Below the pieces are notes generated by a model. The model saw only the letters and a program-made list of their open reading frames with translations, was not told the DNA's origin and searched no databases. Source: Dipteris shenzhenensis (lineage: Eukaryota). From it: a stretch of 64,000 nt of DNA. Both the position numbers and the translations under genes were made by a program. The DNA is taken from the NCBI GenBank assembly GCA_047967505.1, contig CM106538.1; one strand, written 5' to 3'. Numbering within the stretch: position 1 is the stretch's first letter; the number at the start of each line of letters is the position of its first letter. This document shows, one piece after another, positions 2,644 to 54,634 of the stretch.

Positions 2644-3016
2644 TGGCAGTGGTGCCAATCTGTTATTAGGCCCTAGAAAATGGCATTGAGAAGCCTAAAC
2701 TCACATGTGCATTCTTTTAGCATCAGTGCCCTTCTCTAGAAGGTCAGGTGAGAAAACTCTCATGTGATAACCTTCACATAAGGAGAATTGCATTGGTGCC
2801 ATTCTCTGATTCTCTGCAATCCATGTGATGAATCGAACTTCTGCCATTCTCCTTAACATTATGGAGGATGGCACTAGTGGCATTATCCTCAAACTCTCAC
2901 GGAGGATGGCACTTGTGCCATTTTGAACAAACTCACAATCCATGTGTTCAATGGCATTTGTGACACTCTTCATAACATCATATTATGTTGGAGAATGGCA
3001 CGAATACCATTCTTTA
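2644..3016. repeat. Array of degenerate palindromes, consensus GAGAATGGCACTAGTGCCATTCTC
   Basis: Copies near 2644, 2716, 2783, 2830, 2863, 2901, 2951 and 2991 with unrelated spacers. Two more copies at about 4682 and 4741. Confidence 0.75.
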
Positions 3017-3220: not shown

Positions 3221-6200
3221 ATGGCTAGCAAGGGAAAGAGAAAGGTTCGAGAGGTGTCAATTTATGATAGAGTTAGTTCTGGAAGAGGATGGTTTTTGGA
3301 TATATACAATAACAAACTTCAAAAACTCCATAAAGTGCAGTGTTTTGTGAACATCCAAGGAACAACTTTTGAAGATGTTGGACAAGTTAAAGAGATGGAG
3401 GATACCAAGATAGACAACGTTCCTTGTCTCAAAATTCATACATTGGGTGGCAATGTGTATCAATTGGATCCTGCTTGTTTTGATCATGCGAGGATGAATG
3501 CTACTGGGGAGGACACGATGATATCTAGGGGTTGGAATAATGAGCCAAAAAATTATACCAACCAACAGATATTAGAAAGTTTTGATTTGGTAACAAAAGG
3601 GATAAAGCAAGATATAAAAAAGAGTAGAAAAGTTTCGAAAAGAACTAAGAAAAGTGATGTTGAGGGATCAAGCTCTCAAGTGTCTCAAAACACATTGAAA
3701 GAGAAGGCTAGAGAGACCGGTGAGGAGGAAACAACAGGTGAGAAGGAAATAAGGTCAAATGGAAAAACAAGCATTGGGGATAAATTGGATGAAGAAGCTA
3801 AAGATAAAGAGACCAGTTTAGGAGGAAAACAAGGAGGTATGGGAATAGTCACCGATGGAATTGGAAGTGGAGGTGATGCAACGAGGAGTGGTGAGACACA
3901 TATAACAGGACATGGTGAGAAGTCATATGAAGCAACTATCATCCTGTATAAGAAAATCCAGCCAAATGTTGACTTTAAGGCACTACAAAAGAAATTGGAA
4001 AGGAAGGACACAAGTATGACAGGCTTGATGGAGTACGTAGAGTACTTCCCATTTGGTTTGGAGTTTGAGGTGTTGATCCCAGTGATGAATTGCTTTAGAT
4101 CACCAAGCCAATATGTGTACAGGACATTGACCCTCAGCTATGTCAGTGACTTGGTCAAGAGTTTTGCAATGAATGCACGACCTCCTGCAACATGTGCATA
4201 TCTTATGCCTTACCACATAGGCACAAATACTCCGATGTGCAAGGAAGAGATAAAGGTGGAAAAGTTAAAGGATTATAATTATTGGATTCTTGCAGGGCAA
4301 CATTCGATTTATGCTGTAAGGATGTTTATAACTAAAGCACGTGGAGAAGCCTTCAATCAACGAAAAGGTTTCTATACACAGAGGAAGGCGAGAATTGTTG
4401 TCAATGCACTAGTTGAAGCAAGTTGTAAGATATCATCAATGGCCAACATGGAGGCACAGACCGTTTGGAAAAATCATCCATATATCAATATCTTACAACA
4501 CCTAAGGGCTCAGTGGGTTGCATTCAAACGACCAAAGAAACCAGCCCAAGGCCTTGTCAAAGGGCATAAAGATAAACAAAGTTGGGATGTGAGTAATAAA
4601 CTTTGTTTTGTATGCATTTTTTATTTCAAGAATGTTTATGGCTTTGTAAAAGAAATGATAGTAGTGTTAATTCCCTGATGTGAGAATGGCACTAATGCCA
4701 TTCTTCTAGTTACCAAGTCATGCTTTTGACATGGTAATGGGAGAATCGCACTAGTGTCATTATTATCTCTATTACATGATTTGGATTAGAAGAATGTCTA
4801 AGATGATTTTGGTTTTTTTTAATAGAATTTTGTAGGAGTAGCAAGCGTATCGATGGGCGCAAACTTTGCTACCAAGGACACACACATGGTCACATATGAT
4901 GATGACATCTACGAACAATGGATTAGGATTTTGACATTGGTGAAGCAGGGTGATCTTGAGGGTCAAAATCCCACAATAACATATATGAGGTGTCTACTAG
5001 GATTGGAAGACGAAGATGTACGTGCACTTCAAGCAGAGATTGAGTCTAAAGAAATAGTCTTGGTCAAGTCAAGCAAAGACAAGGACTCCATTGAAATGTC
5101 TCAACGGGCAATGGAGATTAAGCATGATAGAGCCCTAAAAGAAGTGCTCATTAAGGAGTTCAACTCACTTCACCCTTCGCCCCAACATCAAACATGGGAT
5201 TCCCTTGCAATTTACTTTAAAATTGATTCAATTGTTTATCAGAGCTTCAAGGGTTCATGTGAGTCATGGGTCAAAGAGAAGCTGCAAGTTGGCCAGTCCA
5301 CACCTGATTTCCCAAAAGCCGCATCAATCTATGTTGATTGGGTGATTAGTTCAATAGAGGGTAACAAGTCTACATCGCAGTCTTGTTTTCCTCGGACAAT
5401 TATTCAAGTGAACATGGAGATGGAGGGGGAGAGCTTTCTAACACGTCACTCCAAGGGACAACTTCCAATTAGCTTGTGTGTGCTTGACACCTCAAAGGGA
5501 TCTACCAAAGGCATGTGTTGGGATAAGGATGCCTTCAAGAAGTTGCTCTGTGGCTTGATGGAGACCGTTGCCACTCCGTCACATTATGTATTGCTATCAT
5601 TTATGAAAATGACAGAGATGGTAAATCTCAAGGAAGCAATGATAGAGGCTCGATTTTGGCATAGAAGGTTTGTGGGTGTTATCCATGAATCAGAGAGTGC
5701 ACAAAAGGGTTTGTCTGAGACCTTCTATTTTTTGTCATTTGTAAGCTCACATGATGGGTTTGATGGATTTGAGAACATGTTAGAAAACACAAGGCCATAC
5801 ACAATAATTGAGGACAATATTCTTGTAGTATGGAACATGAAGTTGTTGTGACGTCTTTACTAATGGATGTGTGGCATTACAAGCATTGTCAAGCAAAAGA
5901 AAAGTGATCTCACTGGTGAAGACATCCCAACAGGGGACAGAGGTCGAGGCTATGTGTGTGGCACATGCATCAAATAATCCCCATAGTAAGATTTGGTCTA
6001 GCATTGAGAGGCCTCTTGAGACACATAGAGCTAATTCACCTATCAATGAAGGAACTAAAGAGGGTGAGCATCACATTGAAGACTTGCGACCTTTAACTGA
6101 AGCAGATCTTGAAGCTATCCCAAAGATTACATTGGAAGATTTGGAGCAAGGTCCAAAGGAATAGGAGAATCTGAAGTATGAGTATTACCAAAAAGCGAGT

Positions 6201-9679: not shown

Positions 9680-11670
9680 TATTAAGGAGACTAATCTTTT
9701 GCTAACTCCACAGTTGGTCTAGATCAAGATCAAAGGGGATTATATCATCCTTAGAGGAGAGAACTCTTAATTAGTCAATCGAAGCCATGCCCAAAAATTC
9801 CCAAATAGTTCCTACTTGAAGTCAGTCCCTACACTCACATGCAATTTCACATCATCATATTTCCTAAAACCCAACCACCTTCAGTTTAGTGAGAAAACTT
9901 CAAAATTTTCAAAGGCATTGGTTGATTGTTCAGTGGGTAGATTGTACATCGTTTGATTTTTGCACTCACATGCCATCATTATAAAGCCTATCAGCAGGTA
10001 TTTTCTTACTTTGTGCACACTATTTGAGCCTTGTAAAGCGTCTTGAATATTACCGGCATCATTTGCCACACAAGACTTTTATCAAATTGGATATATATTA
10101 CAATTATATCTTCACTGATAATTCAGATTGCACTTGATATAGACAATGTTTTGCAGTTGATTCAAACAATGTTTTTCACAAGCACTTTGAGTACTATTTA
10201 TTGCATCATGTCTACCACTAGCAACCTCGATTTGGATGCATCTGCTAATTTAGGCGATTCTAATTATGGCACATGGAAATACCAAATGGAGACCATTATT
10301 GTATGTCAAGACAAATGGGACTATCTCAATGGGTCTACACCTCGACCATCCAATGAACCAGCACTTGCTCCTGCCATTGCCATTTGATTAAAAAAATGTA
10401 CAAGATGTCATGCTTGGATTGCTCAACATGGTGAAGCATCCAAAGAAGCATGGGATATGTTTGCAGCTCTTTACGAGTCTAAGAACACATCCACAATCCT
10501 CACACAGAGAAACTAAATCAACCAGAAATTCTACAATAACAATGAAATTGGTCATGCTTACATACTTGGAATCAAGGATTACAACAATTAACATATAGCA
10601 GTAGGAGAGACTATGAATTCCATGAAAATGGTTCACTAGGAGAGGGATACGAGAATCTAGTCTAGGGTATTTCCATTCAATGGTAAATTTCAACAGTGGA
10701 AGAGCTGCAATCAGTGCTACTTGGGGAAGAACTCAGGACTCAATCCATTCAAGCACGAAAAAGTCATTCCAATGATCAAGCATTCACAGGTTCAGATAGA
10801 GGTAATTTAGGCAGAGGTAGATCATCTCAAAGGAGTGGTCAGTAGCATCAAAGTCATCAGTAGTAGTATCAGCACCCGCATCCGCAACACCATCAACATC
10901 AGTTTCCAAGAGGAATTCATTCCAACAGAGGAGGATTTCAAGGACGAGGGAATGCATCCACCAATGTGTCAAACATTTAGTGAAACTACTATCATAAGTT
11001 TGGACACAACAAAAGAGATTGTTGCAAGAAGCAGTACAAGCAAGGAAGTCAATCTAGTAGCAATCAAGGAAATATTCCATGGAAGAGTAAATCATCATAG
11101 TGTACATTCAAGTCACTGTCATTATGCTAATGAACCACAGAATATGTTTCTTGCAAGTGAGGATATGTAGAAGACTGGTACGATGTATCTCAACATTGAT
11201 TTCAATTCAAAAGGAGAATGCAATTATCAAGTTGATTAAGTAGATCAAGATCCTTGGTACATCGATAGCAGCACGTCATCTCATATGACAAAGCATCAGG
11301 AATGGTTCACAGAAATGAAACCATTAGAAGGATAGAAGAACATTATCTACATTGGATATAACACACCAAATCTAGTTAAGGGAAAGGCATTGTCCTTATG
11401 AACGATTTGACTCGTACAAAAGGATTGGTAAAAGATGTACTCTATGTTTCAAAGCTCATCAAGGACCTCTTGTCAATCTAGAGAGTCATCTTTGATGGAG
11501 ATGAATGCACCATCAAAGACGAATCCAAAGGATATCAGCTAGTAGGAAAAGCATTCAAGGAAGGACGCTTATTCATAATGCTAGCTTCAATAGTAGATTT
11601 GCATGCTTTGTTAGCTCAGCAGCAACTGATGCCACTTTCCATAGAGATATGGACATGTCAATTTCAAAAG
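9680..11670 (+). mobile_element. Old truncated copia family B fragment (leader, gag, protease)
   Basis: MSTTSNLDLDASANLGDSNYGTWKY matches MSTSNLNLEASAKLDNSNYGTWKY of the element at 54290-61546. DPWYIDS protease motif near 11250 and RYGHVNFK near 11645. Many stops and frameshifts. Confidence 0.88.
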
Positions 11671-14521
11671 CTTGATGAAGTTCAGAAATCAAAATATGGC
11701 AATTGGAATTCCTAAGCTTTAGATTCTTGGAAAAGTAAATTTTGAAAATCTCATAACTTTCACATCCAATGTCCAAATATAGTCATTTAGCCACTCAAAT
11801 CGAATGAAAAATACCTTTTGAGAACATCTACAAGGCATAAGTTATAAATTATATTAATTAGAAGATTGAATTCTACATTGAACTTTTAAGAATATAAAAA
11901 TAGTCATAATTTATATTTAGTCTTTGTAGATTTTTCATTTTTTGGTGAAATAATCACTAATTCTCATTGATGAAGCCTCTGATGAGTGATAAGAAAACTC
12001 TATGGAGAGGAGATATGGAAATCTGCACTCATTGACTAGCTGCATGCAACAATCTAGTAGTGTCAACAACATATTATCTCACTCTAGACTAGATTTGCAT
12101 GCAGCTCGAGTGGCAACCCCTCCACAACAAGAACCCGGTCTCATCCACGAGAGGCTACTGGAAGCATCATCCTATGCCTCCACCCTTTGCTTCACCTCAC
12201 GCATAGTCCATGACACATTCCACTACTTTTTGCACACCATCTCCACCGCAGTCCTCTCCCACAACATCCTTTTTTACAACACCCTCACATAGCATGACAT
12301 CGAAGAGATTTTTTGCCACACCACCACAAATGCCCATCCAATCATTGCCATGGCATACTTTCATGAGTATATGGTCCTAGATGTCAATATGGACATCCTT
12401 ACACTCTTTTACCACCCCATTGTATATAATTTTATGATGTGGACTAGAGTGTTACAGGATTCCATAGACTTCACCATGGCTACACCTCCTCTTGAACCAC
12501 CTAAGTCACCAGCCTTAGAAGACCAACCTTGCACTCTGGATATCCTCTACAGAAGTCTAGAATGGATGCAAGTGTATGGTCGGAGTGATGCTAAATATAT
12601 TTTCCATGGCCTGTTCTGGGCTGGTAGTGAAAGGTATCCTCCTACAAGCATTATAGTGCTATACAATAATATACTCCAAGCCCTACAGAATATGATTCAA
12701 ACTGGCATAGGTCAAATTGATGATTCCCATGTGGCATAGCCAATAGATGTACAGCCCGAAAACATGGATTCGGCTTTGAACCTTTTTAACTTCACCCCAA
12801 AACCACGCTGCAATCACAGCCCAACAAAGCTCTTAGCATAGGCCCCAACTCCACTATCATGGGCATACACACAAGCATAGGCCCCACCTCACATCCCTCC
12901 ACATCACAGCATGGCACAACGGACACATAATAGTAGCCTCTCAAATAGGAGGGACCACAAGACATGCCATAACACTCACTAATATAAAATCCTCAAACCC
13001 ATGGTCTTCTCTGACATGGAAGGGCCCTCCTATAAAGAAGGCCAAGAGGAGGTTGAACAATACCTCACGAAGAAGAATACCAATAGCTGTAAGACACCAT
13101 TCCCAACCACAACACATGATATAATGCCATAACATCATTCCGCACGGTCGAGCATGTGGCATATGTTAACCGATGGAAAGCAAGCTGTAGAGCTTCCACC
13201 TCACATGCAAAGATATCACAAAGGTGCAAGATCTCACGAATTGATCCAACACACCTTTTGTAAGTGACAGCATGAAAATTATAGGCACACATGGGGTGAA
13301 TACAATAGACTAGACTACAACCAAGTCCCCCACACAGACGCTGATGTAGGCCTACGGTGACAATGGCGGATCCCATTTTTGAAGCACATAGCATTTTGGA
13401 GAACATACTAATGTGCTGGAATAGAGCAAAGGATCGACCCCACTTACATGCCACTATGCCACCGAAGGAGCTGGCCAAATTTTGAATGGCTGCAGGTAGC
13501 AAATCCCAATGTAGCCTACAACTTCCCGAGATTTGAATTTCCAAAAGTTGTCTCTTCCTTAGCTCTAGTAGCTCATATGGAGGAGTTTAATAGTACCTTT
13601 GCCTCAGTCCTTGATCCTGCAGTCATAGCTACAATGCATTTCTTCCAACTCTTGATCCTTTTGCTATGGGACCTACCAACACTCGCACTGCCGGCCAAAG
13701 AGCATCATCAACAGCTCCGTATAGAAATAGTTTTCAATTTTAATGAGGGTCCCTTATTCCCTCAAGTCATGTGCCTTTATGTACATGTCTATAACCTTCA
13801 TGGTCACCACATTCAGGCTTTCCAAGATAGTGCGAGACACACTTTTGGAAGCCGCTCCATACATTTTGCCGCATCTCCCATAGAACCTTTGATTGGTACT
13901 ACATCATGAACAATGCCCTCGAGATCAACATCATGCACCGGAGACAATCCACGGATGGATTGTGAGCAAGAATGGGGACATGTTAACTACTACCATGGTT
14001 AACAGTTCATGTACTGTGATAACCAAGATGAGATGTAGGAGAGAGCATGAGGATTAGCATATGACATTCACCTTGGAGCCAAATGGGCCCAAGTCATCAT
14101 TAAATGAGAATGAGAGAGGTACATGAGAATACAAGGGCTAGCCCTCCCTTCAAAAGGTTGAATGTATGTAAGGCCAAACGTTTGACTTTGGTCTTCATTA
14201 TGTACTTGCAAGTTTTGGAATAGAAGCTCTCTCTTTCCTTTCATTCTCTTGCATTGAGTCTTATTTCTAAGTTGTCATGTGATTGCCACTCTCGCCCTTG
14301 CTTTCATCCCTTTCTTCCTTTCCCTCTCCCCTTCCCCCTCTCTCTGTGCCCCTCATGGAATCACTCGCACACAATATGGTAGATGCTTGGGTGACACAAG
14401 CATGAGGCTCGCATATACAAAGCTCCCAAAAGGAGTTGTTTGGTAGTAGAGGCTTCGATGGCATTCTTCCAAGATCCCCACGACACGTGAGTCACTACCC
14501 AAACTACATAGGGCCTCATGT

Positions 14522-22311: not shown

Positions 22312-25300
22312 TCACGTCGGGATAAGGCGAGTGTGAATGAACAGCCATCGGGGTGGTGAGTAGCGCCACCGAAGGCCCTGCGAAGTCTGCTCGAAGAAGA
22401 GGCCCTGAGTGTTCCAAGTCCGGAGGAAGCGTCTCCGCTTCTCTTGACCGGACCGGGAATCTCCCTGAATCTGGTCCCACTGGCCTCTGTGGGTATGAAT
22501 AATCTCGCACCAAATATCAGTCATGATTTGGGCAGTCGATAAGGAGGTGCCACCAAGGATCTGCGCGCAACGCGAGGTCCAAATGTGCCACCCTGCTATG
22601 CTGCTAATAATCTCCCAGACTGGCTGCCTCTCCTGAACTCCTGTATCCGCCTCTGCTAGGTGCTGCGGGATACCCTCGAGCAGCCCCCATGTACCCTGCA
22701 TGATAAGGAAAGTGGGGTCCTGCTGGCATGCCTCGAATAAGTGATGTAGACCAGGTGCGGTGCTGCACTAACAGAACGCACCCCACGTGATCAAGCTGGT
22801 GCTGCGCGAGTGAGAATCCCGAAAGTCCACCTCCACACTTCCTGGGCGCGAGTGCAGCTCCACAGGCAGTGTTTTGGTGACTCCTCAACCTCATGGCAGA
22901 TCTGACAGCGTCCGTCCTGGCCTATCTGTCTCAACCAGCTCCCCACCGGAAGACCTTTGTGGGCGAGAAGCCACAGGAAGTAGGAGATCTTCCGCGGCCG
23001 CCAGCTCTCCCACAAGGCCTTCCAGAAGGCTTGCAAAAAGAATCTGGAAATACCCTGTGCATACCAACTGGGCCGCTGGGTGGGGGGGCGGCTCTGCATC
23101 CTCCCAAGAACTCGCCTGCCCAAAGTCGTGCTGTAGGCAAAGAAGGAGGTCGGCCCCTGTCCTGTCACAACCTCTGGCCAGCTCCACTCTCCTGGGTCCC
23201 AATCAAGCTCTGACAAGGCCCGCCCCTTCCAGAGCCAGAGTCGCCAAAGCTGCAGCTGATCCTGCTCAATGCTAGGATCGGTACGCCAGACCTTCCCCAA
23301 AAGGCCTACGATCCGAACCCTCTGCCATGGGAGTAGGGGGTCGATGAGTGCATCCTCTCTCCTGAGTCGTCCATCCCCCATAACCGCGAAGAAAGAAATA
23401 GAGGAGTCGTCCATACGTCCTGTGACCACCAGTGGGATGCCACAGGGGGTGAACTGTCCCAGCCAACGGTCGTCACCAGGCATGAGGATCTGAGGCTCAG
23501 GTGGAACCAACCAATCAGCTGGGACTGCGCCGTCGATCTCCGTGTGTCTCGCCTGGGCTCCACGTGCACCTCCAGCTGCGTCTGCGAGATCAGCCGTCTC
23601 CAAATGTCTGTACGTGTCCCTCCAAACTCGAAGGGACCGCCGGGCTGGCCCCCTCATCCAACCATCCCACCTGATATGTGATCTCTCCCCCAACTGAAGG
23701 CCCTCGGCATCTCTGACCTGATCATTCCAGATAAGCGGCTGGCGATCGATCTCCTCCTGATAGCGGGGAGGGGACTAAATGAGACTGACGCCTCCAAACC
23801 ATGAGGAGGCTACGAACGAGTGGGGAACGGGGCTGAGTAAGCGGGGCGGAAGTGAAGATCCACCTGAGGGACGGGAGCCACTCTCCACCTCGGCACGGGA
23901 CACAAGAACCGACCCCCTGCTGAAGTAGCATCTTCCACGTCTGCCCCCCCGGGGTCAAACCGCGGATGACTAACTTGCCTAACAAGGCCTGACTCTGCAG
24001 CTCTGGATCGATGACTCCCAGGCCTCCCTCAGCCTACGGAAGAATAACTGTCTGCCAAGCAACCCTGGCTCTGGTATCTCTGAGGCCATCCTCCCCGGAC
24101 CAAAGGAAGTTCCGAACCAGCCTCCTAAGCTGTGCCACACTAGATCTCGAGAAACACCAACAGGAAGCCACATACCAAGCCGTGGCAAGGAGGACTTGGT
24201 TGACTACCAAGGCACGACCTGCAAGGGAAAGCTTAGCAGTGCTCCAGAAAGCGGATGGAATCTAGCATCGGGAGAAACTGCTGAGCTGGTGTGATGTCCA
24301 GGCCGACCTGAAAACCCAGGTATCTAGCTGTCTGTCCCCATGGGATCCACCTGAAACCCAAAAACCTCCCCCACTGAGAACGCGCCCCGGGGTCTGTGAG
24401 GAAACCAACTGATTTGTTCCAGTTGATTTTCGCACCAGCAGCCGAACAGAAGACCTCCAGGGCCATCCTCACCCTCTCCAGCATCAACTCATCGTCCTGG
24501 ACATACAGGGCTGTGTCATCCGCGTACTCCGAGTCCAAGAGCTCCGTGTCCTCCCGGAGGGGAAGGCGAACACCCCTGATCCCTGTAGACCTCGCCCGGA
24601 GGTAGTAAGTCATAGCCTTGGCGAAGAAGAGAAACAGGTAAGCGGCAAGGGGGCAGCCCTGACGCACTGATCTCTCCAAGCTAAAACGCTCACCCATCCT
24701 GCCTCCAATGATGACTCTGCTAGAGGCTGTCCTGTACAAAGCTGAAATACCCTGAATCCAACCTGCTGGGAAACCTAGCCGCTCCAGAGTCCCCTCCAGA
24801 AAGGACCAGTCCACCCGATCGTAGGCCTTCTCAAAGTCGAGAAGTAGGATGGCAAGGTGTGATCCGCTGTGCTGAGCCCACTCCGCCGCCTCTGAAAAGG
24901 TGAAGACATTATCCAGGATACTGCGATCCTGGACAAAGCCTGTCTGAGTGTCATGAATGAGGTCTGGAAGTAGAGGCCGAACTCTGGCGCTGATCATCTT
25001 GGCTAGGATTTTGTAGGCAGTGGTAAGGAGAGTGATCGGGCGCCACTGACGGATCTCCTGTCTATCTCCTCCCTTCGAGATGAGGCAAATCAGTCCCGAG
25101 GAGAGGCTCTCTTGCATATAACCGCTGCTGAAAATCCTCTGAAGAGCTGTTAAGAGGGGCTGATGGATCTGGTCTCAGAAGGAGGTGAAGAATGCCCGGG
25201 ATAGCCCATCCTCACCTGGGCACTTCTGTCCATCGATGGCCATCAAGGCCTCTAGCATCTCATCCGTGGTAAACGGTGCCAACAGCGTCACTTGCATGCT

Positions 25301-26618
25301 AGGCTGGACCAAGGAAGGAGTGTGTCTCCACACCTCCTCACGGGCACGACGAGTGCGAGGAGAGCAAGCGGCTCCTGCTGGAAAAGGGTCCTGTAGAAGT
25401 CGGTGGCCAATCCCAAGACCTCTCCCGGATCCGTGACGATGTGTCCCTCCGCTATCCTGAGACTCCGAAGCTGATCACCTGCAGCTCTCTGGCCATGTGT
25501 CCTGAAGAACTCCCTGCACATCCGGTCACCCTTCCGAGCCCAGAAGGAGAGAGAGGCGTGATAGGAAAACTCTGAGCCCGGGGATGCCTGCTGGAGCCGC
25601 TGAATGGAGGCGAGGTCCCTCCGAAGGGCTCTCTCTCTACCCCACCACTCCTGTCGAACCTGTAGGGCTGCGAGCTGTGGCAGATCTGGCTGGACTCCTG
25701 CAAAGCCTGTGCCACCGAATCAACCAAATCCGCGCACTCGCCCCAGTCTCTATCCCAAAGACTGCAAATACTGTTGCGCACGTCCTCCCTCGAGAAAATG
25801 GAGTCGGGAATCCGGCATGAGCGGGGGGGAAGGGCCTGAGCTGCCGAATCTAATGATAAGAGCACCGGCGCATGGTCGGAGAGTGTCGTCCCTGGAACTA
25901 TACCGGCCTGACCGCCTCTGCTGATGGCCCAATCACTAACATAAAATCTATCCAGCCTCTCCAGGAGTCTGCCTCCTTCCCTGCGGAAACCCCACGAGAA
26001 GTCCAAGCTCCCGTGCCAACGCCGGAAGGACGGGTCTCGCCAACAGTCCCTTCCTCCTGTCGCAAAGATAAAAGAGTCCCAAGCGGACTGCTCTGCCTGA
26101 GACATACCTGTAAACTCCGGTCCTCTGCCCTGCTGGTCCTCCAAGGTCTCCAAATTGTTGAAGTCACCTCCAACAATCCAAGAATCCATGTCTGGGAGAA
26201 TCCCTGTAAGTGTCCTCCAGAAGGTGGCTCTACAACGGAGATCTGTGGGAGCATAAATGTTGAGAATTCCAACTCTAGAGCCCTCCAATTCCAAGCCTAC
26301 CCAAAGGGCACGACCTGGAATCAACGTGCCATGACCGAAAACTCCCTGGGCTAGCTGCTCTCCCACGGAAGTACAGACACCACCACTCCTCCCCAGTGCG
26401 CCGATCGAGGGCTCCCAATAAGTGTGAGAGCGACCAGGGAGGATCTTCCCGCATCTACGGGAGTGAGCCGCCGAAAGCTTGTGTTCCTGGAGCAGAAGTA
26501 CATCCAAACGTCCTATCACTGCTGGCTGAAGTTCCTGTCTCAAAATGAGCTTCCTGGGACCACGGGTGCCAGAAGAGTGAAACCCGTTCACATTCCAGGA
26601 TACGAGGTGTAGGCTCAT
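22312..26618 (-). pseudogene. LINE ORF2: APE endonuclease, reverse transcriptase and zf-RVT, frameshifted
   Basis: SWNVNG, LQEHK, GGDFN, RLDRF and SDH (EN). WRPITLL, LDFEKAYD, RQGCPL and YADD (RT). FLWLL.H..L...C..C....E...H.LW.C (zinc finger). The protein is split over several frames. Confidence 0.93.
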
Positions 26619-28656
26619 GGTGAGGACTGGGAGGCAGCGAACAACTGTCTGCTCGCGGTGTCGAGGTCGAAGAAGAAGCTGACATTTCGGAGTAGAGGCG
26701 CTGGCGCTTATGGGAAGGTTTGGAGGGGGAGGCGGGGTCGTCCTGCCCGTCCTTCAACACCTTCAGCAAAGGCGAGAGGCCTTTGGTACCATGAACGAAG
26801 GCTTTCTCGAGCCAGCTCGAGATCTCTGAGGTGGACATCCCGTAGAAGGCACGGAGTTTTTGAGGCATCCAAGCTCTGACATCTTGGGGGAGGGGCCAAG
26901 ACAGGGGCGGCCTGAGGATCACAATCAGTCTGAATCGTTTGGCGGCGCAGCGCCACCGCAGGCGCACGTCACCCTCGGACCACTGAGTCTCGAGAAGCTG
27001 CCCACCGGACGGGCCTATCCAGGAGCAAATCTGAGCATGCGTCTACTCCCTGAGAGCCTCCCAGACCGAGTCGTCTGTCCAGGTTTCGGTGCCGTCGCTG
27101 AGGAACGTGAAAGCAAAGCTAGGGCCATCCCTAGGGGCCAAGGCGGCTATCTTCCCATCCGCCCCTTTGCGGAGCAGGAAGATACTGATGTCGAGGCAAG
27201 CAGGGAAGGTCCCGAGGTCGGCCACATCCAAGTAGTCCCAGGGGCCAGATCTGTAAAAGTCGCGGGGGAGCTCTCTCTCCTGAAGCTGAGGCCCGTCAGA
27301 GTCTGCCACTGAGGGGCTAGCGGACGGAGAAGCCTGCTCCGGTGGTGGTGTAGACTCCGGGTGTCCTGCCAGCGGAGGGGGAGGGGGAGGGGGAGGAGGC
27401 TGGGGAATAGGCAGCTCAGACTCCTCAGGGGCGGCTAGCGGAGGAGAAGAAGGAGGGGGAGCGGGAACTGCCCTCGGCTGAGGAACCGTCGGAGCAGCTA
27501 GCTCTGCGGGAGAACTGAAAGAGGCGGGGGGGGGAGGGATGGGGCTGCAACTGGAACTGGGGCTGAGAAGGAGGGGGAGAAGACTGAGGAGGACGAGGGG
27601 GCTGAAGCTGCGGGTCGGGAGACAAGGGGTGCAGTTGGGGGATGGGCTGGGGCTGGATGGGAAGAGGCTGGGGAGAGGAAGAGAGGAGGACCTGAGGCTG
27701 TGGAGGGCCGGCTACCGTCGAAGAAGATGCTCTCCCATGTCCCTGGGGCGGCTGCCTGTCGGGTCTCTGAGGTGCAGCTACAGGCGGGGTAACCTCTGCC
27801 TCCTTGCCTTTATCAGAAATCTTCTTGTTCTTTCCTCTTTTCCTTCTAACCTCAGTCCAGCCGCTAGCTATCTCTGGTCCGGCTGCCTCTGCTCCTCCTG
27901 GCATGGCTGCCCGGAGGGGGGAGGAGGGGGCAGAGAGGGGGGAGGCGGGGGAGGCCGAGAAGAGCTGGCGAAACGTGGGCAAGCAGCAGCCAGGTGTCCA
28001 AAGCCGTGACACCTCAGACACTGTCCTGGCTGTCCGGTGACTACCATGCTCTGGGTGATGCTGCCGGCACCTGTCACGATCTCGATCACTGCCGGGAGAG
28101 TCGCAGGATCTGCCACAGCCACACGGACTCGGGGGGCTCCTGCCGTAGTCACCGCATCGGCGAAAGTATCGTGCATAACCCAGCCGAAGTGGGAACCCAG
28201 GTCCCTAACAATCGGCCGCAGCTCAGCAGCAAGACCAGGAAAAACTAGCGTCACTGGATGGCGAGGTATACGGAACCGGGCATCAAAATCTGCTGCGCTG
28301 AATCCACGGTACCACGGGACTATCATGATAATCTTTCCATCCACTGACGTGGGGGAGCCAGCAATCAGGTTGCTCGCAGCTTTCGCACTAGAGAGTTTAA
28401 GCCAGAAGATGCCCCTTCCCATAAGGGCCACCTCCTCAATATGGCCGTCCTCTAGCATGAGAGTGGACTGGAGCCAGTCCCTGATGGCTGATCTGGAGGG
28501 GGAATGTCCAATGACTCTGCCATAGACAGAGGTAAGAGCAAAGTCATTGGCAACCTCCTGAACCCGAGATGATTGCTGCTCTGTCAGGATGACGCGGTAG
28601 GCGTCTGGAGAGGGAGGGACCGTCTGGGCCTCCGGTTCCGGGAAGGGAGCCGCCAT
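26619..28656 (-). pseudogene. LINE ORF1 (DUF4283/RRM-like domain plus CCHC knuckle), frameshifted downstream
   Basis: MAAPFPEP start at 28656, MGRGIFWLKL..VPW and CLRCHGFGHLAAAC. A Pro/Ser-rich tail continues in other frames. Confidence 0.8.
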
Positions 28657-31075
28657 ACCGCCAAGACAAACTGCGAGGCTTCCGATGAGGAAGAGGCTGT
28701 CACCCAAAAAAGGGGGGGGTAGAAGCGGGAGGGTGGAGCCTGGGTGTGGCGGGAACGGAGGTGGCGCGAGGTGGAGGCGTGGAGGCAGGGGACGGATGAA
28801 GTGGGGCGGCGGGAGCGGAAGCGGGGGCGGGGGAGAGGCAGAGCGGGGACGAGGGGGCGGACGGGGGGCGAGGGGAATGGAGGGGCGGAGGGGGCGGGGT
28901 GGGGCGAATGGACGGGGGGGGGGGGGGGGCGGGGGTGAAGGCGGGAGGGGAAGGCGGGGGTGGAACGGGAGGGCGGAGAGGCGGGAGGGGGCGAGGCGGG
29001 AGGTGAGGGGTGAGGGGGCGGAATGGGCGGCGGGGGTGAGCAGAGTGGAGCGAGGGGGTAGCGGGCTGGGGCGGAGGGGGGTAGCAGGGCGGGGGTGAGC
29101 GGAGGGGGTAGCGAGGCGGGGGTGAGCGGAGGGGGTAGCAGGGCGGGAGGTGTGGAGCGAGGGGGTAGCGGAGTGGAGCAGAGGGGGTAGCGGGGCGGGG
29201 GTGAGCGGAGGGGGGTAGCGGGCGGGGGTGGAGCGTGGCGAGGGGGACGGAGCGAGGTGGGGGTGAGGGGGGAGGTGAGGGCGGAGGGGTAGGGGCGGGA
29301 GAGGGCGAGGCAAGGAGGGGCTAGGGGGAGGTAGAGGTACGGCGGGGGAGGGGAAGCTCGCAGGAGCTCCTGTCATAGATATTAGCGGAGGACTGCTCAA
29401 TAGAGATATAGCTTTAGCAGCTGTGAGACGCAAGTGGACAAATGTATTGAGACCCACAGGAGATGCTAGAGATGACCACTACCTTCTACCAATAGTTGTT
29501 TCAATTAAAGGAGGAGTTTGTCCAGGTCCTTTTAGCCTAGGAGGTAGTCTGGGACCATATCCTGCCAGTGGTCTCCTCAAGCATGAGTGAGTGGATAAGT
29601 GGAGGCCCCTTTCACTAACAAGGAGTGCCCTCAAGTCCCTCCCTTTGCAGAAGTGCCATAGAAAGGATGGATTGATGGCATCCTTCTTTAGTCCCTCCCT
29701 TTGCCTACCTCAAGGGAATAGGGTAATGGACTATTTCGGCAAGGATTGGACCATTGAGCCAGTTTAGTCTTAACAAGGTAGGAGGGGGTGTGGTGGCATC
29801 TTTGGTTATGGGTGGTCAACATGTTCGAGAGATGCAATGGGCTCCAAGAGAGTGGTTTTGGTGTGCACACATAGGGCACTTAGAGAGGGTGGAGAAGATG
29901 CTCTTCCTTTCGTATATGACATGCATTGGTTGTCACCTCCGATTGTAGGGTGTAGCCCAACCTCCCTTGAGAGAGTGGAAAAGATTATCTCTAGATTTTG
30001 GTTTGCTTATGGACTAGCTACATGCCACAGAGGATGGGGGCCCTCCAGATTATCACAAGGACACACAAGATGCAATGGAACTTCAAATGGGCAGAGGGGT
30101 TCTCCCTAGATCGGACCTCTCTAGCTTAAAATATCCAAGGCCAATGGTCTTTTGGATATAGAGGCACAAGATATGCTAACATTATTGCTTGGAACATCTA
30201 GGTTGCCCATTGCAGTTTGTGATGGGAGGCCAGCAAGTTTCCCTAGTATCCACCTTAGTTGCCATCTAGCATGGCAAGACATTTGCGTGCCATATGGGAG
30301 CGTGGGATGTTAGGATCTTGAACTATCGATGAGAGGCAAATGTGTTTCTGCAAGGCTTGGCTTACAGGTGTCTATTTCATAGATACCTAGGGAATGGGAT
30401 GGGTTCTCTGAAAACACGCTTGTTGACAACTAGTCCTTTCTTTAGCATTTCTTCCATGCTCAACCACCATGATCAATTGATTTATAAAGGTCAATTTATT
30501 AATGGAAAGTTCTTTTTTTGAGGAAAAAAGTTACAAATAGCATAGAGACATTCCAACAAGAACTTCAAAGTTTGTATGAAGTTCAAGATATGCAACTCAT
30601 CCATGCAAAAAGAATCATGACCAATCTGGAGGAGAGCAAATGGAGAATTTTAAGGAGTCAAATAAAGGGACTAAAGACCAAAGAAAATTAGATGATGCAA
30701 GTATAATAAGAACTCACTACAACGACAAAAACCCAACTGGCATAATCATTACAAAAAATTGCCAAGAAAACCACATTGACAAAATGCTACAGAAGTCAAA
30801 TACAAGTGGTAAAGTGTCATCACATAGCATGATCCAGATACAAGTGTTGTTACCACTAACATAGCATAATCCAAAGCAAATGGTTGTGTTACCACTAACA
30901 TAGCATAATCCAAAGCAAACTAATTTCAAAAGAGACATATAAATCATTATACAATACAAAGAAAAGTGTCAAGAACGACAAAATCAAGAAGGACAAACAT
31001 CTCAAGCAAGAATCTCAAATAGTATGAAAAAGATGGGAGAACCCAATGGAAGAAGTCCTAATGTAAGGAGTCACA

Positions 31076-33263: not shown

Positions 33264-33878
33264 TCAGAATACTGGGCAACCTTTAACTATGATACCTGGG
33301 GCAGTAGGGCATGTGGCAAGTGGACAATGATCAATATCTGTGCCCCACCACTCTAATTTTTTCTTTGTCAATCCAAGTGAGAAATAAAGTAGTACTCCCA
33401 TAAATGCTGTACCAGCATCAAGAGCTGCAGAAAGTATGTAATTGTAACGCTGCCACCATCCTTTCCTGAACTGAAAAATGTAGAAGTTGAAAAAAGCGCC
33501 TACTATCAACCAAGTGAAAATGTTCACAGGAGTTGCAGGGGGCATGCTTGAAAAGCCTCCAAGCAACACTGGAATATTAATTAGGGCTATCCATCCCACT
33601 CTTGGGAAGACTTTGCTAAGAATCCAGATTGGAACAGGAAGAAGAGCCCCAAGCAAAAAAAACCAGGTGAGGTTTTTATAGATACCAGAAGATCCAAAGA
33701 GGTACCTTGGACCTACAAGGCCCCACAATACAGAGGCATCATACGCAACTCGATCCTTCGGGCACGTCCAGGGACTCGCAGGAGGAAGAGTATCAATATC
33801 ACAAATGGAATCAATTGATGTAAGCATCCACCATGCGATTGATATGTTGACTGTACCAGCAATCAATGTGCCCACAAG
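33264..33878 (-). CDS. OPT3: OPT3 coding exon 6
   Basis: LVGTLIAG...KGCPVF followed by TGA. Confidence 0.93.
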   Translation of the reverse strand, partial: LVGTLIAGTVNISIAWWMLTSIDSICDIDTLPPASPWTCPKDRVAYDASVLWGLVGPRYLFGSSGIYKNLTWFFLLGALLPVPIWILSKVFPRVGWIALINIPVLLGGFSSMPPATPVNIFTWLIVGAFFNFYIFQFRKGWWQRYNYILSAALDAGTAFMGVLLYFSLGLTKKKLEWWGTDIDHCPLATCPTAPGIIVKGCPVF

Positions 33879-36793
33879 CTGTAACACAGATTAACAGAAA
33901 TGTTAAGTGTCTCCCAACAAGCCCACCTTGCTCCACTTATGGTGTACCCTGTGCATGGTGTGTTGAGGTTATATTTCTTTTGGAGGAGGAAGAAGGGGTT
34001 TTCTCACAGCAGCATGCTCGTGTGTGGACATGCATGTGGAATGGGAGAGTCCACTCAGTGAACAGGTGCATGTGGTTAGCTTCCAAGTTTTGGCAAAGCA
34101 GAGAACAAATACATGAAATAAATGTGCTTAGTGAGAAGAACGTCAACCTGTGCTGTGTACATACACCTCGGCGGAATTTTCATGTAATGACCCAGCTTTA
34201 GGTCAGCCAAGAATGAGATAGCATGGGTCATACTTATCCTGCCATAGGTCTTGAAGAGTGTGTTTGCTATTGGCCTTCCTGGAAGTAGATAGCCAATCAC
34301 AAACTCTGCCAATACATTGAATCCAGGAGGCTGTTCCATGAAAAGTTCAAAGCCCATCAGACTATTTGGCTGGGAGAGTTCAAGAAAATAAAAGAGTAGT
34401 TGATTCAGTCTTATGATCTGCTTTGTCGCTTCAGCCAATCCATCCATCCAAAAGACACACCAAAGTTGAAACAGGGAAACCAGAGTTCATGAAAGAAAGA
34501 GATGGCATGGCTCCTTGTGCCACACCATGAACAAAGAGAGCTGAGAATTCAAGACTAGGGCACAGTAGCCAGCAGGAAACAAACCTGATTAGTCGTTGCT
34601 GTGATTACTCCAATGGGAAGGGTAAAAAGTGATGCAATACCGCATGCCAGAAGTACACCCCACCAGGGTAGCTGAACAGCATCTTCCCATACAATGGACA
34701 CCATAAGAGATAGTGCAAGGCTAACCACCAGCAAAATGACAAACCAGCTCTGAGGGACCTCCCTATACCGTCTCATCAATTGTGAATGCACATCAGATTT
34801 CTGGTCCATCATAGCAGACTGACTACGCTGAAGGATTTCCCTGTCAAACAGAAGATATTTCTTGTTTAATTAGATGCTGGTAAAATGATTTTGAAGGTAA
34901 CAGGAAATTCCCACCATCCAGTTTGTAGGTAAGGCACGTACTTCCCATGGAAAAAAGCCACATGAGTAAGGGTTGCTGCAATTCTTGCAAACCCAAATCC
35001 GATGGAAAGAGCAAAGAATGTGCTCATATACAAACTGCTATAATTGTTGTATGCCTGGGCGTCAAAGGTGAAATCTGTTGTCATCACACGACTTATATTG
35101 TACTTATTCCCTTTGTCTGTGTACAGCTGACTTGAAAATAAGGCAAAAGTTCTTGCCTGATATGCATCTCCCCAATATGCGGCTGGGACAACTACGTAAA
35201 TAAAGAGAATAAACCCAATCCCAAGGTTGACAATAGAGAACCATGGTGTCACCAGGGGGCTACCAAGATAGGATGATACTCCAGCCCAGTCTAGTGAGAT
35301 TGCCCCAATACCCAAACCATGGAAACCAGAACCCACTTGATTTGCAGTGACATTGTGTGGCCAGATCCAGCATATCCAGGAGAAGAATGTGAGCATACTG
35401 AATAAGTACCCTGGTAATGTATAATATGCAAAGCTAATCATCGCAAATATAATGAAGAATTGCATTCTGGTCAATCCCTTCCTCGTACGAATATCATTCT
35501 CGTGTAGAGTCCTGAGGGTTTTCTTCACAACAAATGATAAACATCAGACAATACACTATTTCATTTGCATCTCCTATTCAAATGTTCAAATTTGCAGCTT
35601 TATTTTCTTTCTATTGATTTAAAAACATAGTTGATAATTGTGTTCTTCTCTTGGATTTGTTAGGGCAGGCCCAAAATAGTATTTCTAAAATAAAAGCTAA
35701 GCCTGCAGGCTGCATGTCCATGTGAACCGTGCCTTTTTACCATGCCCACGGCACTGCCAAGGGAGCGCACCCAAGCTGGCATTAATCAAGCCTGAGGCCT
35801 AGACATGAGCGCATATCTCACAGCGCTTTGGCCAGGCTCACTCTTGGCATGCCCACGCTGGGGGGCAGCCTAAAAATTTTCCAAAAAAAGTCTCAGGAAT
35901 CAATAATAATTATGAAGGCTCAGGAGCTACCCAGAAAGAAACAACACAATAACATTTTGGGTGCACCTGAAAAGGGAGACTTGCACTAAGTTCGAAGGCC
36001 ACCACATATGTGCGGGTTCAATCAGGTATCGCCGAAAAATGCCAGCCCATCCATAACCGAGTACCTTGTCATGCACACAGAAAACAAGCGTGAGAAAGCC
36101 TCAAAGAGAACACCAGAAGAAAACCACCTGCCTACTGGTGAGGAGACACCAAGATAGGCCAAAAGTGCCAAAGGACTTCATTTCAAAAATCAGAGAGCAC
36201 GGAGGAAAAGTTGAGATCCCCAGCTTACCAATTTAAAAGTTCTAAATTGAGGAGAAATATATTGAGCTTATTACCTGCGTTGTGAGAACAATGAGAAGGC
36301 CCGCGATAAAGCGAATGTTTTTCTTGTAAAAGGCTTTTATGATGTTGATTGCTCCGACTGAGTATGCATCTCCACCACCAAACGCCACGCCAGCATTTGC
36401 AAAGATCGTGATGAGCACGTGCTCTTTCATGTTAAAGGGTCCTGGGTTGAGGCAAAATTTTGAGCCAAGTAGGGGAACTGTAAACTGAGTCGCGGGAAGC
36501 ACTGCTGCCATAAACCGTCCAATAGGAAGGGCAGCTATCTGTGCAAATGTGGCTGATACCGCGAGGGGCTGAGTTCGGTAAGAAAAGAACGTGTTTAAAA
36601 ACATCAATACAACGCAGGACGTTACGCCTAAAACCCACATCCTGAAAGTCATGACAGGCAAAGACGGATCATCTGTGATTGGCACAGTAAGCGCGACTTC
36701 TTCCACTACGGACTGAACTGCATTCACATCTGGAGGCTCAACACTCGCCCCGTTTGCATATGCCGCCCTTCCAAAGGCAGGATTGTCTTCCAT
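33264..36793 (-). CDS. OPT3: Oligopeptide transporter OPT3-like (6 coding exons, 2241 nt, 746 aa)
   Basis: [32 protein letters not shown] (NPG motif), [18 protein letters not shown] (KP motif) and C-terminal [19 protein letters not shown]. All five introns are GT-AG and phase-consistent. Confidence 0.95.
34148..34330 (-). CDS. OPT3: OPT3 coding exon 5
   Basis: [10 protein letters not shown]...[17 protein letters not shown], flanked by AG and GT. Confidence 0.92.
34585..34840 (-). CDS. OPT3: OPT3 coding exon 4
   Basis: [10 protein letters not shown]...ITATTNQ, flanked by AG and GT. Confidence 0.92.
34942..35511 (-). CDS. OPT3: OPT3 coding exon 3
   Basis: TLHE...FFHG, flanked by AG and GT. 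Confidence 0.92.
35967..36064 (-). CDS. OPT3: OPT3 coding exon 2 (not in the ORF track)
   Basis: [32 protein letters not shown], flanked by AG and GT. Confidence 0.92.
36275..36793 (-). CDS. OPT3: OPT3 coding exon 1
   Basis: ATG at 36793 to ...VLTTQ, then donor GTAA. Confidence 0.9.
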
Positions 36794-40190: not shown

Positions 40191-40546
40191 TGTTGAGATA
40201 TCGAGCTCCACTCGCGATATGCCAGGGTGACTGTTGTGCATTTATGTCACCGACTTGTTTAGCTGGAGATGCGGTTGGTACACCACCCACGAATAATAGC
40301 TGGATGACAGCTATCCTTATCTACTCTAGTTTGTGGCTCAGTTAATATGCCACCTTAGTTAGTTGAGTTTGGTTTGAGACCCACATATAGGGTTCTTCTA
40401 TTTTCTTTGTACTAGAGTTCTTTTGGCTTTCACAACTAAGAAGAGAAAAAACTGTTTTCAGCCTCCACCTTTGTGTGTATTCCCCCAATTGTTCATGTGA
40501 GAAAGCTGCAAGTGAGACTCCTTCGCTCTCTCCTACTATCTTCACA
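40191..40546 (+). repeat. 5' LTR, copia family A
   Basis: TG...CA ends, followed by the PBS. Confidence 0.95.
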
Positions 40547-41045
40547 TGGTATCAGAGCCTTGTTTGTGGTAAGGAGCTCAAGAAAGCATGGTAAGAGGAC
40601 CAGTGTTGCTTTCCTATTTCGAGTTTGGGAGCAAATCTCTGCAGGTAGCACAGCCAGAAGTGCAAGAGTGCATTGTCTCAGATTGAGACGCCCTTCGCGG
40701 TGTGGCGAGAGCGCAGTATATGCTGCAAGGTCATTTCTGATTCGAGTCATTTCGGGGCCTGTTTTGGAGACGGAAGTTCTCCGCAGGCACTCAGAAAAAG
40801 GCCCTGTTTTTGCTGTGCGACCACTGTTCTGCGGGTCGGTGAAAAGTTGCCGCAGAAATTGCATCATATGCCTTTGTGCAGAGATATTGGGAGTTGCAGA
40901 TTCATGCTTGTTGCCTGTTGATGCAAAATCGTCACTAGGAAGTGACTGTGTGGTGAAATACCACTTTCGTCAGTTTTGCAGTTCTGCAAGTGTGAGGCAA
41001 AAGCTGTGTTTTTTGCAGTGACAGAATATTTTGCAGTGTTCTGTA

Positions 41046-44000
41046 ATGGCATCTGATTCTCTTTCACAGATTGTCACTGAAAAGCTTGACAAGAACAACT
41101 TCCAGGCATGGAAGTTTAGAATGACGAATTTCTCGATGGGAAAAGGCTATTGGGAGTTCATTACAGGAAATGAAGAAGAACCTGTTCTTCCTAATGTTCC
41201 CAGTCAACAGGAAATGCAGGCATTCAAAGGATGGCATGAGAGAGCCAGGAAAGTTATGTACTCGCTGTCTATCAGTATTTCGGACTCCATGATTGTGCAT
41301 ATTCAGGATGCAAGTACGCCAAAGGAGGCATGGGATACTTTGGCAAAAATGTACAAATACGCAAGCTAGGAAAATGCAGCTCACAATGTGCAGAGAGAAA
41401 ACATGAGCACTACCACATGAAGCAAGAGCTGCACAATGTGCAGAGAGAAAACATGAGCACTACCACATGAAGGTGAAGAAAATTGCAGATGAACTTGCTT
41501 CCATTGGGTCGCCAGTGGATGATGACGATTTGGTTTCTGTGACCTTGAATGGTCTAGGAAAGGATTATGCACAATTCCGGACATCCATTGCTGTCCGTGA
41601 AAAATTTCCAGATTTTGAGGAGTTGATTGCTCTTCTAATTTCTGAAGAGCAGAGAAATGGGGGTGCATCTTCTTCAGCAGGAACTTCAAAAGAAACTGTC
41701 TCTATGCTGGCAGAGGTAGAGGCAGAGGTAGAGGAGGCCGATCTGCAGGCCGTGGTAGAAATCAGAATATGCAGCAAACGCAAGAAAACCAGTCCTATGC
41801 AGGAGGACGTGGTAACTCTAGAGGCAGGGGGAGCCAAAGAGGCCATGGTGGATGGCAGAGAGGCCAAAATGCAAACACCAATGTTGAATGCTACTATTGT
41901 GGCAAAATGGGTCATATGGCTAAGGACTGCTATAAAAAGCATAATGACATTATGACTGGAAAATTGCAGCAAGGCAATTATGCATCTTCTAGTAGGCAGG
42001 GTGATGACAGAGATGAGCATCTATTTATGGTGCAGCATATGACCAATTGTGTGACAAGTGCAGAAGAACGAAATGATGTGTGGTATGTTGACTCAGGTGC
42101 GTCAAACCACATGACAGGTCATGCAGAATGGATGCAAGATGCAAGGAAAATGGAAAAACCAGGATTTGTGGAGACTGGTGATGATACTGTACATCCTATT
42201 GTGCAGATTGGCAAAATTCCTTTGTCTATGCAGGATGGGAAAAAGAAATACTTGTCTGATGTATTTCATGTCCCGAACATCACCAAGAACCTGGTTTCTG
42301 TTGGTCAGATGGTTGAGCAGGGCTTGCAGGTCAGATTTAATCCTCATGGATGCTTTGTTGAGGATATGAAAAATAATGGTCGCTTGATAGCAAAAGGAAA
42401 GAAGAAGGGCAGGATGTTTACGTTGGATGCGGACATGCCTGAATTGAGTGCAGCAATGTTTGCACATGGGACCGGTGTAGTTGCAGATATTGATATCTGG
42501 CACAAACGCATTTGTCATGTTAATATACAGCGACTTAAATCAATGCAAGCCCAAAATATTGTTGCAGGATTGCCTAAATTCAAGGTTGCAGAAATGCACA
42601 AGGTTTGTGAAGCCTGTCAATTTGGGAAACAGGCAAGGAAACCTTTTCCTAGGCATGTTCAAGAGAGTAAAAAGCCATTGGAATTAATCCACTCTAATGT
42701 GTGGACTACTAAAGCTGCATCTATTGGTGGCTGTCACTATTTTGTCACATTTATTGATGACTTCAGCAGAAAACTTTGGGTGTATTTTTTGAAAAAGAAA
42801 AGTGAAGTGTTTGGGCACTTCAAAGCTTTCAAAGCTATGGTTGAAAAAGAAACAGGCCTGCAAATAAAATGCCTAAGGTCAGATGGAGGGGGAGAGTACC
42901 TCTCAAATGAGTTTGCAAGGTTCTTGCAGGAGCATGGTATAAAGCAGCAATATTCATGCAGTCATACCCCACAGCAAAATGGAATTGCAGAAAGGAAAAA
43001 CAGGCATATTGGAGAGGTATCACGGGCTATGCTAAATGAAAAAGATCTACCAGATTAGTATTGGGCTGAAGCAGTTGCTACAGCAGTTTATATAATGAAC
43101 AGGACTCCCACTGCAGCAATACATGGCATGACGCCAGAGGAGATGTATACTGGTAGGAAACCAGATATTTCTCATTTGAAAATTTTTGGTTGCATTGCCT
43201 ATGTCCATGTGCCAGATGAGTTGAGGTCCAAGTTGGATCCAAAAGCTGAGAAGTGCATCTTTATTGGTTATTCTCTACAGCAGAAAGGGTATAGATGCTA
43301 TAACCCTTCTACACGTAAGTTCACAGTGAGCAGAGATGTTGTTTTTGATGAGATGAGTAGCTGGTATAAACCAGTGAATGTGATGATTGATGTAGATGCA
43401 CAAAATGGTAATGCTGCACAGATTTCACAGTGAGCAGAGATGTTGTTTTTGATGAGATGAGTAGCTGGTATAAACCAGTGAATGTGATGATTGATGTAGA
43501 TGCACAAAATGGTAATGCAGCAATCACTAAATATTAGTGGACCTAGAGTGTTCTCTAGCAGTGGTTCACATACTTCGCCATGGACAGGCAGATTGAGATC
43601 AGGAGAATCTCCTCAAAGCAATGCAGAGAGTGGTATGCAGGTATCACGAAAAGGAAAAGAGAAGGTAGATCAGCCCATGTTTGATGTGAATGCAGGTCAC
43701 TCTTATGTGGATGGTGAATCCAGTGGCTCAGAACAGAGCATTGATGATGAGTTGGGTATTCCTTCTGTTGTTACACCTGGAGTAAGGAAGACCAGGGATG
43801 TTTTGAGAGCACCTGGAAGTGAGCGTATTTTGCGCAGGTCTACCAGGGTTAGGTATCCTGTGGATAGGCTGAAATATGATGGATTTACAGCCATTCACTA
43901 TGCCTATATGGTCAAAGTGATACAGGAACCAGAACCCACTTCTTTTGAGCAAGCCATGGGAAATGAAAAATGGGAGAAAGCCATGGATGAAGAAATGGAT

Positions 44001-45509: not shown

Positions 45510-45817
45510 CTGTTGTGCATTTATGTCACCGAGCTGGAGATGCGGTTGGTACACCACCCACGAATAATAGCTGGATGACAGCTATCCTTATCTACTCTAG
45601 TTTGTGGCTCAGTTAATATGCCACCTTAGTTAGTTGAGTTTGGTTTGAGACTCGCATATAGGGTTCTTCTATTTTCTTTGTACTAGAGTTCTTTTGGCTT
45701 TCACAACTAAGAAGAGAAAAAACTGTTTTCAGCCTCCACCTTTGTGTGTATTCCCCCAATTGTTCATGTGAGAAAGCCGCAAGTGAGACTCCTTCCCTCT
45801 CTCCCACTATCTTCACA
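45470..45817 (+). repeat. 3' LTR, copia family A
   Basis: Differs from the 5' LTR by an 8-bp indel and about 5 substitutions (counted by eye). Confidence 0.95.
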
Positions 45818-54546: not shown

Positions 54547-54634
54547 CCTTCCCTCAAGATCAACATCATGAAGTAGGCCTTCCCTCAAGATGATGATTCT
54601 GGGGAATCGAAGAAGGACTGAGCATTACATTCCA

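Follow-up and report, generated by a model that had tools for sequence, protein, structure and literature searches.

ParB-family proteins bind palindromic sites (parS), and a predicted fold of the ParB type has now been encountered in an intron-bearing gene of land plants. The SANTA domain of KNL2/M18BP1, for which a first crystal structure is available (PDB 9R6H; Walstein et al., EMBO J 2026, PMC12953894), consists of a three-stranded and a four-stranded beta-sheet followed by three helices, the third of which is the longest, and SANTA-like beta-domains have also been reported in phage proteins (PMC12953894). Both serve here as points of comparison for a ParB-like gene in a stretch of 64,000 nucleotides of Dipteris shenzhenensis (GenBank assembly GCA_047967505.1, contig CM106538.1), the whole of which was analysed and is referred to as the window. 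The N-terminal part of the gene product, from position 3221 of the window, had been proposed in a preliminary description to be a SANTA-like domain fused to a prokaryote-type ParB/methyltransferase core. The domain is real and conserved in a plant family of proteins, and it is read here, with some preference over the alternatives, as a family-specific adaptor or targeting module that is SANTA-like in fold only. The gene can be laid out as follows, the intron being a proposal from the reading frames:

3221..4588, plus strand: exon 1, 456 codons, comprising a basic N-terminal tag, the N-terminal globular domain (N-domain), a charged linker and the ParB/Srx-fold core.
3257..3607, plus strand: N-domain, residues ~13-129 (hidden Markov model (HMM) envelope 13-129 on the protein P0001), enclosing the interval 3284-3560 first singled out.
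3608..3967, plus strand: charged linker, rich in G, S and T, including a 68-residue insertion.
3968..4588, plus strand: predicted ParB/Srx-fold core (modelled residues 250-456), with Y-W-I-L-A-G-Q-H-S at residues 354-362.
4589..4825, plus strand: putative intron, GT...AG, phase 0, with the exon 2 side after ...aatag.
4826..5851, plus strand: exon 2, 341 codons, a C-terminal region conserved in the family.

The five strings from which a SANTA-like domain had been read are all present in the open reading frame (ORF) that starts at 3221, within residues 23-112 (window 3287-3556), namely GWFL at residues 23-26 (3287-3298), IQG at 45-47, KIHTLGGNVYQL at 71-82 (3431-3466), FDHARMNATG at 87-96 and EPKNY at 108-112 (3542-3556). 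The stretch that holds them exceeds what chance would give: it lies inside a domain that is conserved in the six closest homologues (whole-protein E-values from 1e-49 to 1e-56) and that is recovered by HMM searches: a domain-only HMM finds it in 39 of 154 proteins, and an HMM made from 27 sequences in 56 of 180 proteins. The Lys-rich and acidic linker that had been described after it is also present, as residues 130-250 (121 residues) contain 18% K+R and 17% D+E, with an abundance of G, S and T. The linker is probably disordered, and its lysine-rich composition, together with the conserved M-x-x-K-[RK]-K start of the protein, resembles nuclear localisation signals and may point to a nuclear protein.

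At the family level, a seven-sequence profile, set against 1.84 billion proteins, retrieved 148 representative clusters (50% identity; many of them fragments) at E<=1e-3, of which 27 reached E<=1e-30. The named members are all annotated as hypothetical protein and come from the fern Adiantum nelumboides (three different proteins), the lycophyte Diphasiastrum complanatum and the liverwort Riccia sorocarpa; the family is thus a multi-copy one of non-seed land plants, ferns among them. When 60 representatives were compared with Pfam at E<=0.01, 54 had no family at all and the other six had neighbouring or low-complexity matches (NIF, SH3_Tf2-1, hAT dimerisation, EEP_ig-like, YkcB_C, and repeats in P0143). 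The authors of the preliminary description knew of no account of such an architecture, and none for the family or the architecture turned up in the portion of the literature that was searched; to that extent this is a new PH/SANTA-like domain family, attached to a ParB-fold protein of plants.

On the same core several alternative N-termini occur, of which the N-domain is one. In particular, the core-bearing groups A, B and C carry N-termini without similarity to the N-domain profile (hhalign probability 0.4-0.5%; at least three other kinds), while group D (P0041/P0047) carries a divergent N-domain (hhalign 85.9%, E 5e-6, 108 columns). As the N-terminal module is swappable on a constant core, a role of the N-domain as an adaptor or targeting module is suggested. 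This sizeable plant family stands outside Pfam, and its members join exchangeable N-terminal modules to a ParB fold of bacterial type. By way of a separate observation, at least two other conserved N-termini of 150-300 residues, without a Pfam match and showing no relation to the N-domain, also occur on the core (one in P0068/P0083/P0084/P0092/P0108 and one in P0118/P0151/P0153/P0136).

The SANTA part of the original proposal fared less well than the domain itself, since no membership could be recovered by sequence. The Pfam SANTA profile (presumably PF09133, the accession named in that proposal) had no match in P0001 (E<=1), in two N-terminal pieces from the window, the seven members of alignment A1 and the 27 N-domain-bearing members of alignment A2 (all E<=10), or among the 60 family representatives (E<=0.01), in searches where HMMER filters lose most matches above E~0.1 and with a library copy in which the presence of the SANTA model is unconfirmed. 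When the A2 profile was compared with all PDB chain sequences at E<=10, the human M18BP1 SANTA domain (9R6H) was unmatched, and the sole match, 4a9a_C (E 0.44), fell within the linker. With P0001 and with the A1 profile, searches of PDB sequences gave no meaningful match, residues 15-125 of P0001 gave no usable match in the ESM Atlas, and a word-indexed search for longer forms of P0001 returned nothing at E<=1e-3. Neither SANT/Myb nor any other Pfam domain was found in P0001 or in the exon 2 protein, P0002.

The letters that had suggested SANTA were then followed in A2, which holds 26 sequences besides the window copy, with 70% as the line for a residue to count as kept; the counts refer to the SANTA pattern as given in the preliminary description and not to a SANTA alignment. 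Only five of the 16 anchor residues are kept in the homologues: W24 (21/21), Y80 (17/25, with F in a further 6/25), L82 (20/25), P84 (18/25) and M92 (18/23). I72 (14/25) and E108 (6/21) fall under the line, and the others are not kept: I45 (1/26), G47 (4/26), T74 (0/24), G76 (5/24), G77 (6/24), V79 (0/25), G96 (1/22), P109 (1/21) and Y112 (0/20). As the counts for T74, G76, G77 and V79 indicate, the 'T.GG.VY' part, which looks the most like SANTA, is private to the window copy. The family has a signature of its own, W-Y-x-D, H-x-F, F-x-D-x-G(Q), C, (Y)QL, M and M-x-SRGW, with W24, D27, F42, D52, G54, Q55, D65, C69, Q81, L82, M92, M100 and S102-R103-G104-W105 as invariant residues. A reading outside the SANTA family is preferred because there is no SANTA sequence signal and because the motif letters are mostly private to the window copy.

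The predicted structure brings SANTA back as a candidate. An AlphaFold2 model of the N-domain made from the 27-sequence alignment (pLDDT 87.5, pTM 0.82; model residue 1 is protein residue 10) has strands at protein residues 24-29, 35-43, 51-64, 67-74 and 79-82 (model 15-20, 26-34, 42-55, 58-65 and 70-73), two short helical turns (84-90), an ordered loop with M-x-SRGW (100-105) and a C-terminal helix at 114-126 (model 105-117). A Foldseek search of the PDB with this model returned nothing at E<=1e-3. The SANTA chain 9r6h_A appeared weakly, at rank 23 (E 0.45, probability 0.47), with the top query-normalised TM-score among the matches listed (0.41 over 108 columns), GRK2 PH domains above it in rank having ~0.25. 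A search of 48,161 chains independent of Foldseek scored the Bcr PH domain at 5.5, CCM2 PTB and Rtt106 at 5.3 each, SNX17 FERM at 5.2 and the SANTA chain 9r6h_B at 5.1; the 50 matches listed comprised 49 PH-superfold domains and one SANTA domain, the latter having the longest alignment of that listing (95 residues). The structural alignment with SANTA has 15% identity. Pfam families of the PH clan had no match in the N-domain pieces or in the 27 A2 members. Among predicted viral structures, the best matches were uncharacterised phage proteins (E 6.7e-3, probability 1.00, TMq 0.44, 75 columns). On these models, SANTA would match the N-domain fold about as well as ordinary PH-type domains do, and over more residues than they, with homology and a common arrangement inseparable. 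The link to the centromere, drawn from a weak and tied structural score, is unproven and amounts to a lead.

The structural matches are what speaks for the best-surviving alternative, the one first proposed, in which the N-domain is a genuine, very divergent SANTA member on a ParB-like core that directs the protein to chromatin or centromere partners. In view of the sequence searches and anchor counts given above, this is considered rather unlikely. The wider claim, that a true SANTA-superfamily domain is carried by a ParB-like protein whose gene family, in ferns and allied plants, is repetitive and possibly mobile, is held to be more doubtful still. Were it true, it would, together with the report of SANTA-like beta-domains in phage, place the roots of the SANTA module of the centromere-licensing factor in selfish or mobile DNA and its proteins, and it would offer a second protein setting, independent of the first, for finding out what SANTA binds.

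According to the preferred reading of a family-specific adaptor or targeting module, the N-domain would form a small beta-sandwich with a C-terminal helix, probably binding a protein or peptide. It would be tethered, by the basic and acidic linker that resembles a nuclear localisation signal and might take the protein to the nucleus, to a ParB/Srx-fold core that may bind nucleotide and/or DNA; a further ~340-470 residues of C-terminal region would follow the core.

The core itself belongs, by its predicted structure, to the ParB/Srx superfamily, and its motif is unusual. A model of residues 250-456 made from 66 sequences (pLDDT 90.9) has the fold of the ParB N-terminal domain, and its top Foldseek matches are PadC, Noc, ParB, KorB, sulfiredoxin and SbnI. 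The ParB half of the core first described is therefore supported by predicted fold, while the methyltransferase half found no support in sequence searches of Pfam, PDB and PADLOC. Across the 66 sequences the core motif reads [S31/D15/N12/A3/G3]-G66-Q64-H66-[S58/T6], the window copy having the rare Ala (3/66) before the motif Gly. By sequence context, this motif would correspond to the DGQHR/GCHR/GERR motif of the superfamily. At the level of sequence families, Pfam ParBc had no match in the window proteins, the seven A1 members or the 60 representatives; TIGR03187 (DGQHR, DndB-type) reached at best 12.5 bits (E 0.091, cut-off 58.85), in P0003 only of five proteins scanned; PADLOC had no match for 12 proteins; and PHROGs gave no E-value under 0.0099 and did not point consistently to any one family.

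The plus-strand ORF 3221-4678 translates to 485 residues. Exon 1 ends in ...SWD followed by gtgagt (...TGG GAT / GTGAGT in the window), and in all six homologues the ORF extends only a few codons beyond the same W-D-V-S, having run across a GT donor. If 4588 is joined to 4826, the frame stays open as far as 5851, for a total of 797 codons with a single terminal stop (5849-5851). The same two-ORF layout is found in a homologous locus on a metagenome contig (L001), whose second ORF aligns from window position 4841, upstream of 4853, where the second window ORF has its first ATG. From the shared stop point, the open joined frame and this upstream alignment, we infer a two-exon gene with a phase-0 intron at 4589-4825. 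Among the contigs of three public sequencing runs, none spans the proposed intron as joined, and one contig, of DNA type, continues across the donor.

Exon 2 is 34% identical to that of L001 over 268 residues, and BLASTP matches it with P0009, P0061, P0015 and P0045; the L001 exon encodes 466 residues, compared with the 341 codons of the window copy. P0002 matches 0 Pfam families at E<=1, its ESM Atlas search gave no usable match, and the word-indexed homologue search returned nothing at E<=1e-3. Exon 2 of L001 likewise matched 0 Pfam families at E<=10, hence no methyltransferase, and its best PDB sequence match was no better than E 1.1.

In front of and within the gene lie short palindromes:

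2783..3014: four imperfect 24-nt palindromes, consensus GAGAATGGCAC-nnn-GTGCCATTCTC, 207-438 nt upstream of the ATG, in a ~119-nt repeat.
4682-4705 and, weaker, 4741-4764: two more copies, in the putative intron.

With up to three mismatches, the pattern has five sites in the 64 kb (2783, 2864, 2902, 2991 and 4682), all of them at the ParB-like gene, as against a mean of 0.00 and a largest count of 0 in shuffled sequence. This clustering, with none expected by chance, favours a second alternative, in which the N-domain assists the ParB-like core by binding nucleic acid and helps to recognise specific DNA sites such as these palindromes, in the manner of ParB and parS; the fold list is also consistent with it, as it includes PH-like domains associated with DNA or chromatin, namely Rtt106, SSRP1, TFIIH p62 and the double-stranded DNA deaminase DddB. 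However, the palindromes are absent from L001, and were rejected as a family-wide feature, they sit in a ~119-nt repeat that may be small-repeat- or MITE-like (miniature inverted-repeat transposable element) and unrelated to the protein, and nothing ties the N-domain to DNA. Overall, this alternative appears improbable. The copies belong to the repeat families D1, D4 and D8, and the cluster could be a small repeat or MITE, or an array of binding sites.

The window copy of the gene differs from its relatives. Its 68-residue linker insertion is private (A1 columns 213-280 are gapped in all other rows), and, when compared with a 95-99% identical contig from a public sequencing run, it lacks ~80 bases near 5824-5848, after which the stop at 5849 follows. 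The copy is thus probably 3'-truncated in exon 2. It is also probably decaying, as judged from the Ala in the core motif, the private insertion, the lost bases with the stop at 5849 and the copia fragments on both sides; this has no bearing on the domain of the family. An ORF in another frame, at 5871-6164, resembles by eye a continuation of homologue exon 2, including a D-I-F-x-x-G stretch of L001 and P0015, and such an exon 2-like tail was not confirmed there by tblastn. The last and weakest alternative, that the N-domain and its SANTA resemblance have no functional consequence and belong to a dead copy of a repetitive gene with a drifting N-terminal ORF, would draw on weak constraint (24 non-synonymous and 15 synonymous changes among 39 listed differences from the 95-99% identical contig, 9 and 4 of them in the N-domain, with 52 more outside the list), on the 3' truncation and on the surroundings rich in transposable elements, but is very improbable since it concerns the window copy and not a family in which many clusters share the domain at 30-40% identity and with an invariant core signature, and since none of the nine listed N-domain replacements is at an invariant residue.

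The window as a whole is repeat-rich nuclear DNA of plant-like character, containing copia-type elements (RVT_2, rve, gag), a long interspersed nuclear element (LINE; RVT_1, Exo_endo_phos, zf-RVT) and an OPT transporter gene. The features around the ParB-like gene are:

1-2646: 5'-cut copia element with RVT_2; 3' long terminal repeat (LTR) at 2361-2646.
10437-11736, plus strand: gag-like fragment of an element related to the second copia (54290-61547).
22791-29457, minus strand: LINE-type retroelement with Exo_endo_phos, RVT_1, zf-RVT and a 529-residue upstream ORF without a Pfam match.
33264-35528, minus strand: two ORFs matching separate parts of the OPT oligopeptide transporter family (E 1e-34 and 5e-43).
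40261-45817: complete copia element, its 286-nt LTR segments 98% identical to each other.
54290-61547, minus strand: second copia element, with gag, Pol_BBD, rve and RVT_2 in two long ORFs; flanking 258-nt repeats 100% identical.

The cut copia at 1-2646 is 96% identical to the complete one (three 300-nt segments compared), which contains a 99-nt tandem duplication at 43320-43522. The full identity of the repeats that flank the second copia suggests a very recent insertion. The LINE block has 56-61% G+C, compared with ~40% in the remaining window, and the two OPT ORFs are presumably exons of one host gene. That the ParB-like gene might be an additional ORF of the upstream copia was considered and rejected, as the 3' LTR of that element ends at 2646, 575 nt before the ATG; the intron of the gene contradicts it as well.

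When the gene is set against the described systems, its core departs from the ParB/DGQHR superfamily in its motif, in which the final Arg of the nucleotide-binding GxxR is replaced by Ser in 58/66 and by Thr in 6/66 sequences and the first Asp is present in 15/66 only. Its host departs too: unlike the ParB/Srx and DGQHR (DndB-type) relatives, it is carried by eukaryotic land plants in an intron-bearing gene. In parallel, the N-domain differs from SANTA in sequence, since the family invariants W-Y-x-D, F-x-D-x-G, C, QL and M-x-SRGW are not those of the SANTA signature given in the preliminary description. The conserved surface patch of SANTA comprises, in human M18BP1, a Trp413/His414 track along with Glu420, Arg421, Ser431 and Lys468; the invariant columns of the family hold no conserved Trp-His pair. 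The protein context differs likewise, the N-domain standing on a ParB-like core and SANTA standing in KNL2/M18BP1 with SANT/Myb and/or CENPC-like motifs. With respect to PH-like domains (PH, PTB, FERM-F3, EVH1, Rtt106, SSRP1/Pob3 and TFIIH p62), scores are low and alignments mostly shorter, at 72-92 residues (most 72-83), and no counterpart was identified in them for the long ordered loop with the invariant M-x-SRGW. The N-domain is predicted as a two-sheet beta-sandwich capped by a C-terminal helix, an arrangement that it may have in common with PH-like and solved SANTA domains, and in its possible way of working SANTA and PH-like adaptor domains are its nearest counterparts; if confirmed, this family would be a second protein family with a SANTA-like fold, useful for questions on the binding partners and the evolutionary origin of SANTA.
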